Assembly (NCBI GenBank): GCA_910592345.1
Contig: CAJVPI010000179.1
Span: 1 to 45,129, forward strand
Direction of reading: 5' to 3'
Source of the DNA: Paraglomus brasilianum
Lineage: Eukaryota
DNA: 45,129 nucleotides
Positions within the stretch are counted from its first letter, which is position 1, and each line of letters starts with the position of its first letter. Positions 2,050 through 37,006 of the stretch are shown piece by piece. The notes under the pieces were generated by a model. It was not told where the DNA came from and made no database searches. It was given only the letters and a program-made list of their open reading frames with translations. The translations under genes were made by a program, and so were the position numbers.

Positions 2050-4633
2050 CTACATCTCGTCCATCTCCTCTAAACTTGGCAAGCTGAAATCTGATAGGGG
2101 AGGCAACTGGTGAAAACTATTTCTTGGTTTAGGCAAATCTCCAGTAGGTAAGAGCTTACTAGAATATTTACTCTCTTTCTCAAGACGTGACAAGGGTCTT
2201 ACATCATTGCGATAAATGGTATTCCACATGTTGTCGTCAGAATTATCCTTGTCCACCTCTTCAATAAGATCGCAAATAGACTTGAGAAGTGTTGTAGCAT
2301 CTGGACGCTTGCCAGGATCAGCATCACAACACAACTCGGCAATTTTCTTATACTCCTCTGGCGCTGAATCAGGCATCGGTGGTCGCAATCCGCCCATAAT
2401 ATCGCACACTAAATCTCTGTCGAATGGCCTATCTCTAAAAGGTGATTCACCGGTGGCAATCAAATGCATAATAATACCAAAAGAATATACGTCTGATTTC
2501 CGAGTAAATTTACAAGTATGGAGTACCTCGGGTGCAATGAATGGTAATACTCCTCGAATGGTTGAACTCGATTCGGATGAATTCACCGATCGGGAGAGAC
2601 CAAGATCGCATATAAATGTATCACTAATGCGAAAATCTTTTTCTGTCTCAGACTTGCTACAATCTGAATTATCATGAAAAACTATGTTACCGCCATGAAG
2701 ATCACAATGCACAGATCCTGCATAATGAATAGCATCCAGATAGTCTGCAACACCCTTCAAATAGCGTAATTTTATCTTCCACGTCAGGTTGTTAATATTT
2801 TGATCCAAATAAGACAAAAGACTACCATTATTAGCATATTGCATAACAATCATGTACTCTTTTGTTTCTGGGTCTTGTGTGGTCCCGTAAATCTCAAGGA
2901 AAGAAGTGACCGCGCACTTGGCGTGATTTCTGAACTAATAAATAAAATAAATAGAGTCAGATTAAATACCGCTTTAATTAATATTGTCAAAGATTGCCTA
3001 CCTCGGAAATAAATAATTCCGGCGTTTCATCAAAACCCTTAAAGCGTTTCAGTACAACAAGTTCTGGTATTTGTATATCTTTTTCTGAATTGCCTTTATA
3101 TTTGGCAGTATAGACGGTTCCATAACCACCAGATCCAATCTTTTTGAGTTCATCAAAGTCGGTATACTCCATATACTGAACATATTCATTAAGTCGTATA
3201 AACTTGTCCAACAGTGCTTGTAAATTGTGGTAGAACACTAAATAATATTCTCGAGTAGATGGCTCTTGGGTGATTCCAATTATCCAAATATTATCCGGAG
3301 TCAATATTTCTGGATATCGTTTAGTTAGCTACTTGAGTAAACAAATACAGTCGTTACCACAATGATTGATTTAAACTGCAACATACACACACCTAATAGT
3401 TAATAAGACTGTTTGCGTGAAATAATTTACCTGGTAAAAATCAAACGACTGAGAATCCTGTCCGTCAACTATCTTTTTGAGCATTACTGTTGTCCATCCA
3501 TTTGTTATCGGTTCCAACCAACCTGCTATATGTGTACACCCATGGCGTAATAATGTCATCTCTTGTACGTTCGCCAATAGAGAGTATTCAATCCATTGTA
3601 TATACGCATCATATCTACTCGTCGTATTACTCCATGATTCCATAATAAATAAATCCAATGGTTTGTTGCCAGTCGTCCAATCAACAGGTCTTGGTGCCTT
3701 ACATTCATAACAGAATGCATTCATATTGGGTTCCAATCTTCCTATGCATGCCAGACACAACCCCCTCTCACAATATTCGTTTATTAGATAATACTTCCGT
3801 TTCGTCAAATGGTATGTAAATCCAATGGTAATCCAAACATCTTTGGCAAGAATGTCTGGATGCTTATCACATAACTAATGAATGATACGTTGTATCAAGT
3901 CAACAATTATAAATTATCCAAACAATTTAATAAACGTGAGGTTTACCTTGTCATAATATGAACCATCTGTCTTATTTGTTATCTTAAGTGGAATCAATTT
4001 CACTTCACGATCCAAGTATCCCCAATAATCAATACAAGCGAATGGAATCCATTCCAAATAGGCATGATTTGGTGAGTTTGTTTGTAACTGAGATTTCTTA
4101 ATAAACTCGTCGAGTTGCTTATTGTTGCTAGTCCATCCATTGGATATTTGTTTATGTCCGCAAATGCACCACACGGGACTACATCGGAGTATTCCACATG
4201 CAGTGCAGAATCCATATCGAGAATAACAATAGTGAAAGCGTCTATTAGCAACCATGTAATAGTTGTTATCATAGTTGGTAAATCCGTCTATCATTCGATT
4301 GCGTTTCCTAAGCAATGTGGAATATCTTCTAAAGCCCTTGACATTATTATTATTGTACTTATATGTTGGAAGTGAGTATATCCTGGCAAACTCGCTCACA
4401 AACGTTGGTGTACATATTTCATCATTTCCAAGAGATAGCAATATCATCTTCGTTTCAGAAACTCTACCATTATCAAAAGTTTCCTTGCGAATAGCGCAAT
4501 GAATAGTGTCAATTTGACTTGACTTTATGCCGCTAATTTCCGAGTAGGGAATCCATTTAAGTATATATTCACTTGCTAAGGAGGCTTGAATCAAGTTGTC
4601 AATTGCTATATAAGCCCCTAAAACTAACGACAT
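2050..4633 (-). CDS. Tyrosine-kinase-like (TKL) Ser/Thr kinase of the Glomeromycota-expanded type, about 780 aa, 4 exons (4633-3947, 3874-3431, 3328-3002, 2934-2050)
   Basis: GT-AG splicing joins the ORFs in frame. Motifs GSGGYGTVY, VVLK, HCDLHGGNI, DLG, GVLPFIAPE, DVYSFG and C-DADP-KRP are present, plus repeated N-terminal WT-xNK-LD-FI...WI(P/E)(Y/F) modules. The 5' start is uncertain. Confidence 0.9.
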
Positions 4634-5342
4634 TGAAGCAAATACTGTACATTCCGGAGCAGTATTTTATACATTTTGGTGTTACATTGTAGTTAGGCAA
4701 CGTTATTATTATTAGTAGCGATTATTAAACATGCGTTTCGCTGTCAAAAAAAAGGTAAAAGCAGTTTCTTATTAAAAACAACATAGTTATGATCATAATC
4801 ATGTCAACCGTTGTTGCATGTTACTCTATTGCTCTCACCGCGATCTATATTATTCGAATTGTAAACTAGTCCAATTTATAATTCACAAACTTTGGATATC
4901 ACCCATATCAACATCTCTTAATATTAACAAAGACCTTTGTTTGAAGAGAAACAGACCATAGCTTAGGACTATTGTATCGCTCAAAATCATCATTAACAAA
5001 AAAAAAAGTGGTTGGAATATTCAACATGGAAGTATTTTACGATGACTAATACAAACAAAGAGGCTCGTTGGTTCGATTAATATGTTCGGTGTTTCTAGAA
5101 TGTTTCTTACAACTGTGGTAAATGCATATCAATTTTGATTTCGAACTCGTTATCATTAGCGGATGATTGCAATAGCCTTTTTAATTAAGCTTCAGGACAT
5201 TTTAATTTATGCATCCCGTTTGTTGTGAATATATATCATTTAGTATATTATTTCAGCAAAAGGAATACTCATTGAAATACAATGGAATGTATAAGTGCCA
5301 TCTACGGTACCAGATCATCGTTAATATTAATACGTTTTTGAT

Positions 5343-27333: not shown

Positions 27334-27694
27334 TATCAGGTTGATTGCTATGTATTATAATGCATTATCCTATTACTATGGCGGATTGAATTCTATAGAA
27401 AAATCATATGTAACACACCGTTGTGCAATTTTCGAACATTCCCAATTTCAATAAACACGGTTAACTCACATTCTTAAACAAACCACATTTTTACAACCCT
27501 GGTTCAGAATAAGATTACCTACAAAAGTGCAAGTAAAATCCAAGAGACATATGTGTCTCGGTTGAAACATTGCCACCTCCGGAAAGGTTGCCGTTGTCTA
27601 CCAATGAACTTATTTTGCTCGTGAGAAAGACTATTAAGATACGTGTGCAGCAAATGTGATCAATTAACGATTTGTGACCGCGATCCATCATATA

Positions 27695-28351
27695 CAGTCA
27701 ATTCGGACACCAACTTTCCGAGGCCATCATCCGAATTATTTATATTATCGATTCATGGTGTGACAAAAACCGCCACAAATTTTGAAAAAGGTTCTAAAGT
27801 ATACTGTAATTTACGATATGAAACTTGACTAATTAGCCGACGAACGATTGATAAATAATCTACACGAATATTAATGTTATCGTTATTCTGTTCAAGAAAC
27901 GATAAAGACTGTCTTAATGCATCTTCGCCTTCTTTTAACGAAATTTTTATCAAAATTATCTTTTGTTATTATGATTTAGAACATCTTGAGTTTTTTTGCG
28001 GCAGTTAGATGTGTATAGGGTTTGGGATGTTTTTGTTTTTGGAACAATCCATAAAAAAAACTCTTTCGTAATTTGGACGGCTGGATTTTATTAAGCGTGT
28101 CCGAATTAACAAGAAATTATTACATATATTAATATGGGTAATGATCTGTAGTGGACGAATTAAAGTTAGATTTTACAATACTTAATTTATACAGTTAATC
28201 ACTTACAGTTGTCCGAACCGAATTAATCGAGATTTCATAATTATGGACGAATAAAAGGAAGGAATTTGATATGAAAAAACGAGTCCGGCATCAAGCGTCC
28301 GGATTATCGAAAATCCGAATTAAAGAGGGACGAATTAAAGGCAGTTGACTG
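27695..28351 (-). mobile_element. Internally deleted pogo/Tigger-like DNA transposon
   Basis: TA|CAGTCAA ... TTGACTG|TA termini and multiple (G/T)(A/C)CGAATTAA subterminal repeats at 28070-28340. ORF 27753-27953 (ISLKEGEDALRQSLSFLEQ...LQYTLEPF) resembles a pogo/CENP-B transposase C-terminus. Confidence 0.6.
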
Positions 28352-28362
28352 TAGTCTGTGTT

Positions 28363-28497
28363 TGCATGTTTCATGCGCGTAGGCTCCAATAAGATTGCAT
28401 GTTTCAGGCTCCATATAGGATTGCGCGTAGGCTTCCATATAAGATTGCATGCTTTATGCGCGTCGGTTCCATATAAGATTGCGTGTTTTCGGTTCCG
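28363..28497. repeat. About 5 imperfect tandem direct repeats upstream of the IS607-Fanzor element
   Basis: Recurring units built from TGCATGTTTC / TGCGCGTAGGCTCCA / TATAAGAT. Confidence 0.8.
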
Positions 28498-28610
28498 CCA
28501 TTCAAATACCGACAACCATAAACATATTTAAAGACATTATCCCCAAACTCTTTAACCATTGCAATATTGCAATATTTTGCTCATTTGAAATCCAAATCGT
28601 AAACACATAA

Positions 28611-30184
28611 TCTCTCCCCAAAACCACCACTTCAAACAAAAGGAGGTCCTCAGCTCCTCAATCTACGGATAGATCACAGGACACGAAATTGGTTCAGGGC
28701 TCAATTGGAAACGCAGGGCCCTTTTGGAACAAATATACTCTAAAGGAGTCGAAGAAGTGGTGGTTACCCGAAAAGACCGCTTGTGTTGCTTTGGATCCAA
28801 ACTTGTGGAGCTCGCAGAAGACCTACTCGCAATCGTCACAGTGTTTGTGGCGTGACATAATGGACTATGTTCGGCCGCAAATCGCAGAAGGAGAAGAGAA
28901 GCCGCCCAAGAGGTTCAAGAAGGAAGTGAAGAAACCTTTAGTAGGCAAGGTCTGACGTATTCGCGTTTATCCCAACCAGCAGGAACGGCTGAAACTCAGA
29001 AGATGGATGGGAACAGCACGATGGACATACAATCGGTGCCTTATCGCTGTCGAAAAAGAAAGTATCAAACGAGAAAAGAAGGATTACGCGCACTATGTCT
29101 CAACGCCAAAAACTTCAATGATACCGAACTTAAATGGGTCTTTGAAACTCCCTACGACATTCGCGATGAAGCAATGAACGACTTGCTTAAAGAATATTCT
29201 TCCAATTTTGCTGCCAGTCGTAAAAATTCAAGATGAAACTCCGTTCCAAAAGGATCCTCAACAATCAATTACGATACTTTCTAAACACTGTGGCAAGTCC
29301 CATGGGAAATATTTATTTTTTCCTAAAATCAAGTCAGCAGAATCTCTTCCATATAATAATAAGCTTGAATATGATAGCCGCCTTGTTATGAATCGACTTG
29401 GGGGATATTATCTTTGTATACCCAGACCACTTGAAATATGGGCTGAAAACCAAAGCCCTATATCTCAAAAGGTTTTTTTTTATTATACTATATTATCTAT
29501 TAAATTAAAACTTTAATTATTAATTATATATTTAACAATTTAATAGGAGGTGATTTCTCTGGATCCAGGTGTATGTACATTCATGACAGGTTATGATCCA
29601 AGTGGAGTAGGGTAAAAATGACATTGGCCGAATTTATCGATTAAGTCATGCATGCGACAAGCTTCAAAGTAAACGCGATTGTATGCATGGGGAAAAAATA
29701 AGCGAAAACGTTACAGGTAAAATTTATTAATTAAATTATTTATTTATTTAATATTTATTTATAATTTAACATATATACTACTTTCAATTGTAGATTACGT
29801 CGTGTTATGTTACACATTCACAAGAGGATCCGCTGTCTTGTGAATGATTGTCATCATAAACTAGCTAAATGGCTTGTGAAAACTATCGCATAATATTACT
29901 ACTCGAATTTCGCACTCAAGGAATGGACAACGACGCATTGGTTCCAAGACTGCTCGAGCCATGTGTACATGGTCACATTATCGCTTTCATTTGGCACGTG
30001 AGCATCCCTGGTGTCGAGTCGTAATTTGTACAGAAGAATACACAAGTAAACTTGTGGATCTTGCGGTTATATTAGGGGCTCCAAGGTTTTTTGCTGTCCC
30101 CAATGTAAAACAAACCTTGGTAAAGATATTAATGGTGCTCGCAATATTCTTCTTCGATATCTTACAAAAAAGGAGTCAGCTTAG
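28611..30184 (+). pseudogene. Fanzor2 / IS607 TnpB-like RNA-guided RuvC nuclease, decayed, two introns
   Basis: Stitched frames give PFWNK..KKWWLPEKT.CV.LD.N.W, RIRVYP..W.GTARWTYN, TPYDIRDEAMNDL, YDSRL, RuvC-I ISLDPGV(C)TF (D at 29562), HHKLAKWL, HYRF, shifted Glu TEEYTSK, Zn finger CGSC..CPQC, and RuvC-III DINGARNI (D at 30125), with TAG at 30182-30184. Premature TGA at 28953 and several frameshifts. Confidence 0.92.
28685..28900 (+). pseudogene. tnpA: IS607-family TnpA serine recombinase remnant (C-terminal two thirds), overlapping the Fanzor frame
   Basis: The frame starting at 28685 reads EIGSGLNWKRRALLEQIYSKGVEEVVVTRKDRLCCFGSKLVELAEDLLAIVTVFVA*HNGLCSAANRRRRR. This matches IS607 TnpA motifs D.GSGLN.KR, DRL.RFG and EL.EDL..I...F.AR..G.RS. 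The catalytic YARVS and HTH are not found. Confidence 0.88.
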
Positions 30185-30266
30185 GCTGACGCGGGAGCCT
30201 ATTCCCTGACAGGACTTGTTATTCCTAATGTGGAGTTTTATTAGTAATGATAGGTTTTAATGTAGG
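30175..30266 (+). ncRNA. Putative omegaRNA scaffold / right end of the IS607-Fanzor element
   Basis: Hairpins at 30175-30190, 30193-30206 and 30211-30258 (19/20 pairs, many G-U). GCCTA (30197-30201) is complementary to TAGGC (30263-30267). Located directly at the 3' end of the nuclease gene. Confidence 0.6.
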
Positions 30267-30689
30267 CGTCACTGTTGCAAGTAATATAAGACACACTGTA
30301 ATAGTAATCTTGCGATTACTATCATCGTAAAGTAAATTTACTTATTAGTAGCATAGCACTGGATATGAAAGCCGTTGTCATAGAAGTTGATAATGTAGAA
30401 CTTTATTGCTAAATATTAGCAAGCTGTTTATATCTCAAGATTGTAATCTCCTTGTTATATATCTCGACAGACTATTGATCTCTCAAAGGATTGATCTCGT
30501 TATCTTTAACTGTGAGAGTGTTGAACTTACATTTAATATTGACGTTGTTCTGGTCATGTACCCTTAATGAACACTTTATTTATTACATGAAGCCGCGAAT
30601 ATAACACTACGTAAATTTACTTTACGATGATAGTAATCGCAAGTCTATTATTATAGTGTGTCTTATATTACATGCTTGCAGCAGTGACG
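30267..30689. mobile_element. MITE/foldback-like element with about 75-bp terminal inverted repeats
   Basis: Arm 30267-30341 (CGTCACTGTTGCAAG..TAATATAAGACACAC..CTTGCGATTACTATCATCGTAAAGTAAATTTAC) is the near-perfect reverse complement of 30611-30689. No TSD seen. Confidence 0.75.
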
Positions 30690-33426: not shown

Positions 33427-36400
33427 ATGTCTGACGCCGAATTCGCAAATGTAGAGTCTAATGACGCCGCAGACAAAGACGCACACGCAACAATGGCGTC
33501 AGAAATAGACTATTTGGAAATGTCAAAAGATGTTGGTAAAGAAAGGCAGTCAGATGACGCGATGGTTGATAAGAAAGAAGGCATAGCTCAGTCTCGACCG
33601 AGAATACGTTATACTCAAGAGCAACTGCTGGCATTAAGGCACAGCCCACTAGTAAAGCGGCCAGATGCTTTGCCACCAATGAACTCTTGGTTTGGGTAAG
33701 GATTCTGGCATATGCAACGAGTCAATCCAGTTTCTCAAGCTTCAACATTATAACTAGTCTGGTTAACTACCAAGATCTGCTTCTAGCAAGACTAATCAAC
33801 GTTGTTTTTTGTTAACTCAGCGAACACATCAAACGAGACAACAAAAAATTGACCGGAGACGGAATAGAGGGTGATAATAAAAGGTAGTTGAATGCATGCT
33901 TTAAACTCGGCGAAGACATTTTATCGAATCCGGACTGAATAGAGGTTGACTTTTTTCGTCTTTTTACCTAGCAAAAATTATGGAGAAGGCTCGAGTAAAT
34001 TGAAAGATGATGGGATAGGACTAGGGATCCCAAAGAGCCCGGCATCAAGCGTTTCGAAAAGTCCAAATGGTTCGGCACCTACTTCTCCGCGACCTGCAGG
34101 TAAATTTGGCATTCAAGTACTCCAGCTTATAGTTTGCGAGTGTGCTACTTCTTACTTTGTATTCTTAGTTCAAGAAAAGATTGTCTTAGGACCTCCGAAG
34201 ATGAATTTTGCTTCAACTTCACTGGCAGGACTGAAACCTTCTGGGGAAAAGTTACCTGCAAGATCAAACAGAACCGATGGATCGCGACGACAAGTAAGCG
34301 CGTTAAGCTGCCGTCTTTGCATTTGTTGATTTATTATGCTAACTCCAATTTTGGCAGACAGATGATTTGATATATATGAAACCTTCCAATAAAGAATTTG
34401 AACCACGAGCACCGCGAGGTCCAACTGGTGGACGAGGGTTTGTTGGCAGGGAGGCTTTGCGTGAGCGAAATCTTGCTGAAAAGGCGTCTAAAGAAGCTAA
34501 TACTTTTTCAAGCAATACAAACGGCCGACTAACAGCAGGCGCAAGACCACACGAAACCACCAGAGGTAATAGAAAGGATGGTAAATTGTGGAGCACTAAT
34601 TGGTTATGCAATATGTTTCGGATCATGACCTGTCGCACAAGTATTAATATTGTTGGGAAATCTTATCTCTTACCGCATGTTCTGTATTTAGTTGGTGTGG
34701 GCCATAAAGACTTAAATAGAACGAGCAATTCGCGGTATCATAATTACCAAGAAGATCGTTCGGAGACACCAGAATGGATGAATTATAATCCGCAAACAGA
34801 CGAAACAATGAAGAAAGGAAAGAAGAACGATGATGACAATAAAGCATTTATTGACGATATTCAAGCATGGAAGCTTAAAATGAGGGAACAAGAAAAACAT
34901 AAGCAGCGCGTGGAAAAGGATCGTAAGGATCCGAATGAAAGAAGTAGACCTCGTAGTATGTCTCGTGCTGATAGCAGCGTCTCATGGAGAGCGGATAGTA
35001 AACTCGTCGGTATAGAGGGGCATATGACGGCGATAGCCGGCGCTTTAAATGACAAGGAGAATATGATAAAAGGAGATACAACGTTCGATATTGATGGTAA
35101 TTATTTTCTTGTTCGCATGTCGTACGCTGTTACTTGGGAAAACGACTTATTCTAATTTTCAATAGTGAAACCGTCAAAGAGCACGAGCAATGTGCCCAAT
35201 GTTGACAAACTATTTGGCCTGGGTGGCTTGGATATTAACGTCCCTTTAGATCCCAATTCTTCAGCGTTTGATAATTTTCTTTCCCAACATAGACTTGCCA
35301 TCGCTGAAGAGAATGTAGGGAAGATTAATAACGTTAAAGAGCTAGAGGGCCCATCTCGCGAACAAGAAACTTCCCGATTTGCAAGGTTCTTCTCCCATAG
35401 CGCGGAGAAAGGTATTTCTGATATGGACAATGTTGACGAATCGAAAAAAAACTCTATGCCGGCACAAGTCACGTCTGCGTCTAAAGATGTACCTAGATCG
35501 GGAGCATCGATAAAATTTGAGACTTTATTTCAAAATCAGACGACAACTAACCATTCTACTCCACTGTCCCCAAGCACAACTACTAATGATGGCAAACGCA
35601 TGCTTTCAGAAGCAGAAGTACTGCAAAGCCTTGGCGCCAGGCCTTCTTCGAAGTCCCATGATTTCGATGACTCTGGTGTCGATGATGTCATGGGATTCAA
35701 CAAAATTCTTGCAGTTTTGGCAAAAGGCAATGTAAGCTCCTGTATTCATGCTGCTTTAACTTTTCTTGACGTCCTGAATAGTCGGATTTTTGTACCCTGA
35801 CGGAACAAGCAACCTGAAACCTAAAGTCTTGTTGATAACCATTTTGTAGAATGCGATGGAGCCACCCTCAAACTTTTCAGTATCCCCATCTATTCACGCA
35901 GTACCGGCTTATCAACCAGGATTAGCACATCAAGGGCTTCCTTTTAACGACCCTTCTATTATTATTGCTCAGAAACCCGTCATGGGAAACAAGCCTCCTA
36001 AACTTGAAACGCCGAATAGAGGAATGGTCATTCCTGACGCGAATGCATCAGATTCCGTCAAGAAGATTAATATGCTGTTTGGAGGGAATGTGCCGACGTC
36101 CGTTTATAGGCAGCTGAGCTCCAGGTCCGATGGTGGTTCTAGAGAGTCGTCTGGAGCTTCTTCGCCTGCCCTTAAATTTAATTCCGCAAAGCCTTTGGTA
36201 CCTAGTTTTTCACGTTCGCCGATTATACCCCAATCCCCTCCTATCTCAGACTTTCATGGATCTGATTTCAAGGCTGCAGGGCCTCCAAGGTCACCAGGTC
36301 TTCCGCAGCAGGGTAATTTCAATCCATCCCCATACCACGGAATTCATCCACCCTATTCGAATGGGAATATGTCGTTAGGACGTGACTATCCGCAACCACC

Positions 36401-37006
36401 TCCACAACCTCCACCTCCGCCACAATTAGGGCGTAATATTCCAGTAGAGCAATTGTTTAACTTGGCACCGCGGAACCCTCAACAACTACAATCTCAGTTT
36501 CAACAAGCGTCCATTCCAGTATCAATGCCTCCACCTTTTAGTTATCAGCAGCAACAACAGCAGCAACAACAGCAACATCATCATCACCATCATCAACATC
36601 AACAGCAACATCATCAACCCCACCAAGCACATCAACATCATCATCAACAACCACAACACCCTCATCACCCCCATCACCCCCATCAACAACAATTCTCAGG
36701 GCCTGCTATACCACAACAGTTTGCTGTTCATTCGCACCCTAATATGCTGCACCCAGGCGCTGAAGCTTTATTTGCAAATATGCATGGATATACACAATTC
36801 ATACCGAATATTGTCAATAGTGCTTTAGCACCTAATTCTCTATCAGGTTAGCGTGTTTGCTATTTATCTGTTTCTCTTACAAAAGTGATACTCGACAACC
36901 TAATGAGGTGCATGACTATTTAGGAATGCCATCAAATACTAGTCTTCAACAACGTAGCATGATGACTTTGGAGGAGATTGAGAGGCGCGGACTCGGTGGT
37001 CGATAA
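33427..37006 (+). CDS. eIF4E-binding protein, 4E-T/Eap1-like, multi-exon, with Q/H/P-rich C-terminus
   Basis: Canonical YxxxxL-phi motif RYTQEQLLALR..SPL in exon 1, then ETPEW, SRFARFF, and MTLEEIE in the terminal exon (36924-37006, TAA 37004-37006). Confidence 0.72.
36546..36692 (+). repeat. Coding CAN-triplet low-complexity tract (poly-Q/H)
   Basis: CAG/CAA/CAT/CAC runs encoding QQQQQQQQQQHHHHHHQHQQQHHQPH... Confidence 0.9.

Follow-up and report, generated by a model that had tools for sequence, protein, structure and literature searches.

A dead copy of an IS607/Fanzor2 element was found in the window, the 45,129-nucleotide stretch of the Paraglomus brasilianum genome (contig CAJVPI010000179.1) that was analysed. 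In the family to which this copy belongs, the transposase gene tnpA lies in the frame next to that of the nuclease and almost wholly within the 5' part of the Fanzor2 ORF. Taking the evidence together, we consider it probable that the N-terminal domain of the nuclease was born by overprinting tnpA in bacterial ancestors, and that fungal copies express both proteins by leaky scanning from a CUG to an AUG on one spliced mRNA.

Anatomy of the window copy

The copy is a relic spanning 27417-30269, with the left end (~27417) and the right end (30269) placed by alignment with related loci. The left end, carrying the motif ACCGT...TTTCGAACATTCC (27417..27443, + strand), was aligned with 9 loci of differing flanks and is followed by a deletion of ~100 nt relative to the relatives. 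A frameshifted 5' piece of tnpA (27499..27600, +) begins at a conserved CTG with A at -3 and G at +4 (27499-27501), which is the predicted non-AUG start. The full Fanzor ORF is predicted to start (M-T-S-Q of P0003) at the +1-frame ATG found 52 nt after this CTG (27551..27553, +). Unrelated DNA of ~1.08 kb (27601..28684) then stands in place of ~250 nt of tnpA. It includes a TA-flanked inverted-repeat element with CAGTCAA ends and internal repeats, without a long ORF (27693-28353), which was inserted in the IS607 copy and which we take to be Tc1/mariner-like, as well as short degenerate repeats (28356-28496, unit ATAAGATTGC..., spacing 33-50 nt). The last part of this DNA, 28500-28684, is common to the window copy and its nearest relative L025, which has the same junction and the same 12- and 9-nt losses, without the large deletion described below.

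The 3' part of tnpA, encoding the serine recombinase catalytic domain and tail, follows in the frame of 28673 (28688..29121, +), with the family stop position at 29119-29121. It is interrupted by a stop (28853-28855), deletions of 12, 9 and 78 nt, and a frameshift near 29085. Over it lies the Fanzor2 N-terminal domain (28689..28955, +), with PFW at 28719, WWLP at 28758 and a stop at 28953-28955; the third motif (SWY) is gone with the deletion at 28806/28807. A basic patch precedes the first WED strand (28899..28937, +). The remainder of the Fanzor2 gene (28956..30184, +) is decayed by frameshifts and stops, while a zinc finger and the D of the RD/KD motif (30125) can still be recognised. Two GT-AG introns are predicted from the sequence in this gene (29472..29546 and 29717..29793, both +), and both segments are absent from L005-type copies. 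The predicted omega-RNA region and right end (30160..30269, +; ...TGTAGGCGT) carry a 16-17-nt deletion. An inverted-repeat element (30267-30689; 68-nt arms, 91% complementary) directly abuts the right end, and would therefore supply the guide sequence of this copy's omega-RNA.

The original prediction had proposed that a TnpA recombinase is encoded in the frame offset by -1 from ORF 28689-28955. Both translations are present in the sequence: the -1 frame from 28673 reads ...IGSGLNWKRRALLEQIYSKGVEEVVVTRKDRLCCFGSKLVELAEDLLAIVTVFVA*HNGL, and the frame of 28689 reads ...PFWNKYTLKESKKWWLPEKT...KPPKRFKKEVKKP. Of the two families named for the alternative frame, IS607 transposase was recovered by NCBIfam profile NF033518 (28673-28852, E=1.6e-11), with residues 4-46 falling on positions 94-139 of the 187-position profile and a fragment score of 44 bits against a whole-protein cut-off of 110, whereas the match to Pfam Resolvase was weak (E=0.063). 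The main frame, with its stop read as X, resembles Fanzor2 N-termini (11 proteins among 103 candidates), and its 84-aa piece alone gave 31 matches to Fanzor2 N-termini. The four short broken ORFs of the copy matched no Fanzor family in Pfam or NCBIfam. As both frames are broken here (by a TGA at 28853 for TnpA and at 28953 for Fanzor, and by frameshifts from ~29085), the window documents two-frame homology rather than expression. The proposal that at least 200 nt encode both proteins fits intact relatives, where the overlap is far longer (median ~610 nt, Fanzor ATG to TnpA stop), but not the window copy, in which neither frame is intact.

It had also been proposed that a segment between LVE and LAEDLL was lost with both frames preserved. 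The deletion is real (78 nt relative to L032/L050, 66 nt relative to L025), but it does not point to dual constraint. Only the window copy has it, and it takes out the SW(F/Y) nuclease motif (here SWY) together with one TnpA strand; moreover, 5 of 8 indels of at least 5 nt in Fanzor-only exons, compared with L032, are also multiples of 3. The preserved frame is for these reasons uninformative, in-frame indels were ruled out as evidence of dual constraint, and the deletion is decay. A lost intron was rejected as its cause, since the join misfits GT-AG ends and sits between short repeats. The ATG at 28861 was likewise rejected as the Fanzor start, because the codon is ACG in L025 and L050.

Assignment to IS607 and Fanzor2

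The TnpA of this family has an N-terminal HTH and a serine-recombinase domain, the window fragment being recognised by NF033518. The YARVSS/DIGSG/DRL/EL..DL pattern is complete in relatives, and its YARVSS part is lost in the window copy. A tnpB-like gene follows downstream on the same strand. The nuclease carries the marks of Fanzor2 and pro-Fanzor proteins: DPG in RuvC-I (window 29562), with the D-P-G columns invariant in alignment A6, and a Glu shifted beside the zinc finger (EEYTSK at 30033, then CGSC), with E440 invariant in the same alignment. The closest named relatives of the element are in Diversispora, Rhizophagus, Racocetra, Gigaspora and Ambispora.

The element ends are ACCGT on the left and GGCGT on the right, with variable flanks and no inverted repeat. 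Near-identical copies with different flanks indicate past mobility only. ACCGT recurs at the left junction (L006, L008, L011, L019, L050, L053 and window 27417) and CGT at the right end. The crossover motif is GG in most IS607 members, according to the accessible text of PMC13565253; judging from the junctions, crossover may here occur within a CGT or CCG-like target motif rather than GG. In the predicted omega-RNA at the right end, 6 of 39 predicted pairs are compensatory across 5 sequences, and a comparison of this region with Rfam gave no match.

tnpA is nested in the Fanzor2 ORF of intact relatives

We compared 240 loci, comprising the best 80 of 172 metagenome matches, 80 viral loci (one from one search, and 79 from the best 80 of 153 matches) and, from prokaryotes, 80 of 86 matches. 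Scanning viruses with the read-through N-terminus or with the Fanzor alignment gave no match, while TnpA queries did. The overlap expected of intact copies was borne out: among the 80 metagenome loci, the Fanzor2 ORF lies in the +1 frame and overlaps tnpA by 410-863 nt in all 38 intact pairs, that is, loci with an unbroken TnpA and a long Fanzor ORF. As the loci were found by overlap-type queries, this count is no measure of how frequent the layout is in IS607.

The 139 full TnpA cores from metagenomes, viruses and bacteria were reduced to 115 non-redundant ones, 102 overlapping and 13 non-overlapping. The overlapping cores contain 70 stops in the +1 frame, compared with 1279 in +2 and with expectations of ~1188 by synonymous redraws and 376 by within-gene codon shuffles; because cores were classed as overlapping when a +1 ORF matched a portion of the Fanzor profile, this count is partly circular, over ~30 codons. 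The 13 non-overlapping cores contain 206 +1 stops, against ~207-211 expected. Over the TnpA catalytic half of the overlapping cores there are just 4 +1 stops, all in the decayed L084, with 674 expected. Stops are tolerated over the HTH half (62, with 480 expected).

A few loci depart from the usual layout. L077:117-2084 has TnpA and Fanzor in one continuous 656-aa frame, either a frameshift fusion or an assembly error in comparison with the near-identical L042. The 5-kb locus L078 holds two nested TnpA/Fanzor elements, different from each other and one on each strand. Gene callers were found to miss one frame or to fuse both, and several NCBI models are TnpA/Fanzor chimeras; the NCBI/JGI fungal gene models P0006, P0012, P0013, P0033, P0049, P0119 and P0120 splice TnpA-frame and Fanzor-frame pieces together. 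Fanzor2 editors mined from such models may therefore lack the N-terminal domain.

Selection on the second frame

Conservation in the +1 frame was assessed in 173 columns of the 102 overlapping elements, keeping the TnpA amino acids fixed, excluding stops and using pooled codon usage. Thirteen columns have z>6, all inside three blocks, P-F-W, S..L-W-L-P and S-W-F; these z-scores ignore shared ancestry and are hence inflated. Among the 102 elements, Trp is observed at three +1 positions in 93, 82 and 69 cases where 25, 22 and 18 are expected, and Pro at one in 81 where 25 are expected. For motif conservation the +2 frame is no independent control, being made of the same bases as +1. By this statistic, the three +1 motifs (PFW, LWLP and SWF) were shown to fix the synonymous codons of TnpA.

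The motifs survive in seven TnpA-less loci. Six of these fall into two near-identical groups; their old TnpA frame contains 15 stops over 130 codons and still shows ILERF opposite PFWN. Lipomyces proteins and one transcriptome-derived protein likewise start just before PFW.

Synonymous divergence was measured in 20 close pairs (1 of 22 and then 1 of 21 pairs were left out, having no partner ORF or landmark). It amounts to 0.43 in the catalytic half, 0.57 in the HTH half and 0.64 in Fanzor-only sequence. The catalytic half is less diverged than Fanzor-only sequence in 18/20 pairs and than the HTH half in 18/20; in non-overlapping control pairs it lies below the HTH half in 3/8. Five diverged pairs of fungal copies gave pN of 0.05-0.08 and pS of 0.23-0.32 for the TnpA frame, with a Fanzor-only pS of 0.54-0.65; judged by these values, TnpA is under purifying selection in fungal copies. 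The second frame is thus open beyond chance; synonymous constraint on TnpA and residue conservation in the new frame are seen over the catalytic half, and these two signals are weak over the HTH half. At the level of sequence statistics, these data demonstrate the overlap as well as selection on the second frame.

It could be argued that the +1 frame amounts to no more than a shadow of TnpA, with Fanzor starting near the first WED strand and the motifs arising as by-products of conserved TnpA residues. The motifs do sit over conserved TnpA stretches (LLE, VVV.H and LVV), the 5' half of the overlap is without any column of z>6 (maximum 5.1) and tolerates its 62 stops, and many proteins in databases are annotated as starting at a downstream Met. 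However, this Met is not conserved (ACG in L025 and L050). The motif residues are commoner than the TnpA amino acids would predict and outlast TnpA in copies where it is dead, and the expected stops are present in non-overlapping TnpAs. The solved ApmFz2 structure also has a homologous segment. The motif excess and persistence, the stop counts and the ApmFz2 segment already contradict a shadow frame over the catalytic half, and we find such an explanation scarcely credible.

The overlap encodes a predicted N-terminal domain of the nuclease

ApmFz2 is a mimivirus Fanzor2 (PDB 9B0L) in which residues 53-130 form a domain absent from other TnpB structures, as stated in the available text of Schargel et al. 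(PMC11832414). The same text describes an NLS (1-53), a RuvC-R part (65-91) and a basic, DNA-clasping thumb (109-130), and reports that N82 and S83 contact the omega-RNA pseudoknot. An AlphaFold model was made for the relative L007 (rather than the window copy), starting 15 residues before the first Trp and using an alignment of 86 rows. It has a pLDDT of 85.6 and a pTM of 0.83; the motif blocks are ordered (pLDDT 78-86) and the linkers are not.

The closest solved structure to this model is ApmFz2, including its N-terminal domain: the alignment with 9B0L begins at model residue 12 and chain residue 53 (Z 26.5, rmsd 4.1, 407 aligned), and is known by its range ends rather than by residue pairs. 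For the other 49 of the 50 structures listed, alignment begins at model residue 109 or later. In profile comparison, NSWF aligns to N82-S83-W84-Y85 of ApmFz2. No sequence match to 9B0L was obtained for the PFW and LWLP blocks, which are reached only by the span of the structural alignment. When P0001 was searched by sequence against solved structures, 9B0L was not among the matches, and in profile searches its alignment started only at residue 112 or 78. The model predicts that the motifs form, on the nuclease, the RuvC-R part of an ApmFz2-like N-terminal domain, and the overprinted domain would contact the omega-RNA pseudoknot. The available text of PMC11832414 calls the domain "unique" and gives no origin for it; here it maps to the tnpA catalytic domain in the other frame.

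The basic patch had been put forward as a possible NLS. It aligns with the thumb of ApmFz2 and not with its NLS. The median number of K/R per 22 aa of the patch is 7 in the metagenome clade with the fungal copies (n=27), 2 in viral (n=39) and 1 in prokaryote-labelled sequences (n=7). With its basic residues most numerous in the fungal copies' clade, the patch may double as a candidate NLS.

Origin of the overlap

The overlap is also found in bacterial isolates, namely Vibrio (L202), Pseudoalteromonas (L214) and Endozoicomonas (L177 and L209). The +1 ATG of these loci lies inside the TnpA Y-A-R codons, and is placed behind GGAGG in L202 and L214. Its occurrence in bacterial genomes argues that the overlap did not arise in eukaryotes; we infer that it predates eukaryotic hosts and was inherited from bacteria. 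An unrooted FastTree phylogeny was calculated from 128 TnpA cores, 20 of them non-overlapping rows, in a biased sample. On this tree the overlap label requires 2 changes, against a mean of 18.8 after shuffling. Four stand-alone viral tnpAs nest within the overlapping side, which suggests, from tree position, loss of the nuclease frame. Among the viral loci, L120, L139, L153, L155 and L159 are AT-rich stand-alone tnpAs with no nuclease partner and 30-40 +1 stops, and the four nested genes belong to this set of five.

The older of two overlapping frames should have the wider homology. TnpA has homologs outside the clade, and none were found for the domain in the second frame, which points to tnpA as the older gene, within the limits of the unrooted tree and biased sampling. 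The Fanzor2 N-terminal domain therefore likely arose by overprinting tnpA in bacterial ancestors. The proposal that the N-terminal extension arose in this way thus remains the best explanation, with the amendment that the overlap is not of eukaryotic origin.

Could the N-terminal domain instead be older than the overlap, or the frames have been superimposed by recombination, without de novo overprinting? TnpA-less Fanzor2s with the domain do exist, and the TnpA tree is unrooted. In these TnpA-less copies, however, the -1 frame still bears traces of TnpA (ILERF.. opposite PFWN). Homologs of TnpA include non-overlapping IS607 transposases and resolvases, while the domain is covered by no other of the 50 structures listed; and of the 2 label changes on the tree, one is that of the nested stand-alone viral tnpAs. 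We therefore hold an older or recombined domain to be very improbable.

Expression in fungi

How two overlapping ORFs are translated in a eukaryote had been left as a question by the original prediction. A TnpA ATG is present in 88 of the 102 overlapping elements, with the Fanzor ATG at a median of 20 nt after it and within 25 nt in 44/88. The next ATG is in the +1 frame in 76/88, but as 61 are expected, this is mostly compositional. No TnpA-frame ATG was found in the fungal family. Instead, all 10 aligned fungal sequences (related, and four of them near-identical) have a conserved CTG in strong context (A at -3, G at +4), at the position of the Met of other TnpAs. An indel of 1 nt immediately precedes it, and one of 9 nt follows downstream. 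The Fanzor ATG lies ~50 nt past the CTG; L003 has lost that ATG and has another one codon later. A near-cognate codon with G at +4 occupies the TnpA start site in 6 of 14 AUG-less elements (including L003), and AUG-less copies have CTG in L037, L078 and L154 and ATA in L014 and L016.

Leaky scanning from the CUG (TnpA) to the next AUG (Fanzor) would thus be a concrete, if unproven, answer. Some ribosomes would start TnpA at the CUG and others would scan on to the Fanzor AUG of the same spliced mRNA, and the output might be little TnpA and much Fanzor. Over its first 80-90 codons the overlap would likely encode a disordered, dispensable leader, serving mainly to place the Fanzor AUG near the 5' end.

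In one subfamily, a GT-AG segment with a CTAAC branch motif lies inside the WWLPER/VVTRK-DRL overlap (5 loci shown), and five more loci break at the same site. The segment is absent in the window copy, L003, L025 and L036. The 65-nt GT..AG segment is skipped in 3 of 4 runs aligned to L005, and one 2466-nt contig lacking it starts upstream of the CUG and reaches the right end. This contig differs from L005 by 27 letters in ~2000, while the intron-less DNA copies (window, L003, L025 and L036) are ~70-80% identical to L005. As the runs are only guessed to be RNA, splicing out of the segment is likely rather than shown. A single spliced mRNA is the likely source of both proteins in fungal copies, with TnpA starting from the CUG.

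With the overlap and overprinting accepted, fungi might still use separate promoters, splice an upstream AUG exon into tnpA, or leave tnpA untranslated. In most copies the surroundings of the CTG include pyrimidine-rich sequence and a CAG, and some copies have short upstream ATG-stop pairs. Nevertheless, L003 keeps CTGG with A at -3 and has no AG there, and the long contig of run X4 covers L005 138-615 without a break, with the downstream intron skipped. Purifying selection on TnpA in fungal copies and the near-cognate G+4 codons at the same site in other AUG-less copies (6/14) also count against these routes. We consider these other routes of expression unlikely, and favour leaky scanning from the CUG.

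A wider scenario, which we rate at about even chances, would have the structured, RNA-contacting domain of Fanzor2 born de novo in the second frame of the transposase gene, with nesting allowing both genes to be carried by one eukaryotic mRNA. Mycorrhizal fungi would then have domesticated this arrangement, TnpA having been shifted to a CUG start that sets the transposase-to-nuclease ratio and a spliceosomal intron being gained mid-motif, such that one splice restores both genes.

Relation to known systems

The element belongs to a known family. IS607-type Fanzor2s, overlapping or separate ORFs, introns and NLSs have been described in general terms in the available texts (PMC3627910, PMC3673617, PMC9956272, PMC4058570, PMC10530073, PMC13565253 and bioRxiv 10.1101/2023.08.09.552727), and the nesting appears in none of these texts. 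As in the Fanzor2/IS607EU elements (Bao and Jurka 2013, PMC3627910; Gilbert and Cordaux 2013, PMC3673617; PMC13565253), a serine-recombinase TnpA and a TnpB-like Fanzor2 are encoded on one strand in a eukaryote, with no terminal inverted repeats seen, DPG and the shifted Glu. The accessible parts of these three papers speak at most of "two overlapping ORFs" in IS607 and do not describe nesting, a CUG start or an intron in the overlap, and the hosts named in that of PMC3673617 do not include Glomeromycota. The pro-Fanzor IS607 TnpBs, proposed ancestors of Fanzor2 (bioRxiv 10.1101/2023.08.09.552727), are bacterial and share DPG and the shifted Glu, and the bacterial loci found here share the overlap. 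The accessible main text of that preprint mentions neither overprinting, frameshift nor reading frame; the overlap was here found in gammaproteobacterial isolates too.

POLG/ORF-Y offers a parallel for the proposed initiation, having a CUG in strong context for one frame, an AUG for the other and synonymous-site constraint in the overlap (PMC7059407, available text). There the CUG frame is the new gene, whereas here the CUG would start the older gene, the transposase, and the AUG the overprinted one. Initiation was shown for POLG in that text, and is a proposal for the fungal element.

The nested architecture is apparently unpublished: a literature search, covering mainly openly accessible main texts, found no description of tnpA nested in the nuclease ORF, although Repbase or ISfinder entries may show the overlap, and nothing joining overprinting with TnpB or IS607 with Rhizophagus. 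Overprinting would offer an origin for the domain termed unique in the available text of the Fanzor2 structure paper (PMC11832414), and a testable case of a folded domain that arose by overprinting and outlived its parent gene. Nesting is also a possible answer to how a two-gene bacterial insertion sequence is expressed in a eukaryotic nucleus, and bears on why IS607 crossed into eukaryotes, a question raised in the accessible text of PMC3673617 and bioRxiv 10.1101/2023.08.09.552727.

Elsewhere, the window contains split genes for TRAPPC8, a class I tRNA synthetase and kinases. A Pro/Gln/His-rich ORF with long Q and H runs (35850-36851) is probably a host-gene exon. Pieces of a tyrosine-kinase-like gene lie at 2050-4666 on the - strand, presumably of the kind expanded in mycorrhizal fungi.
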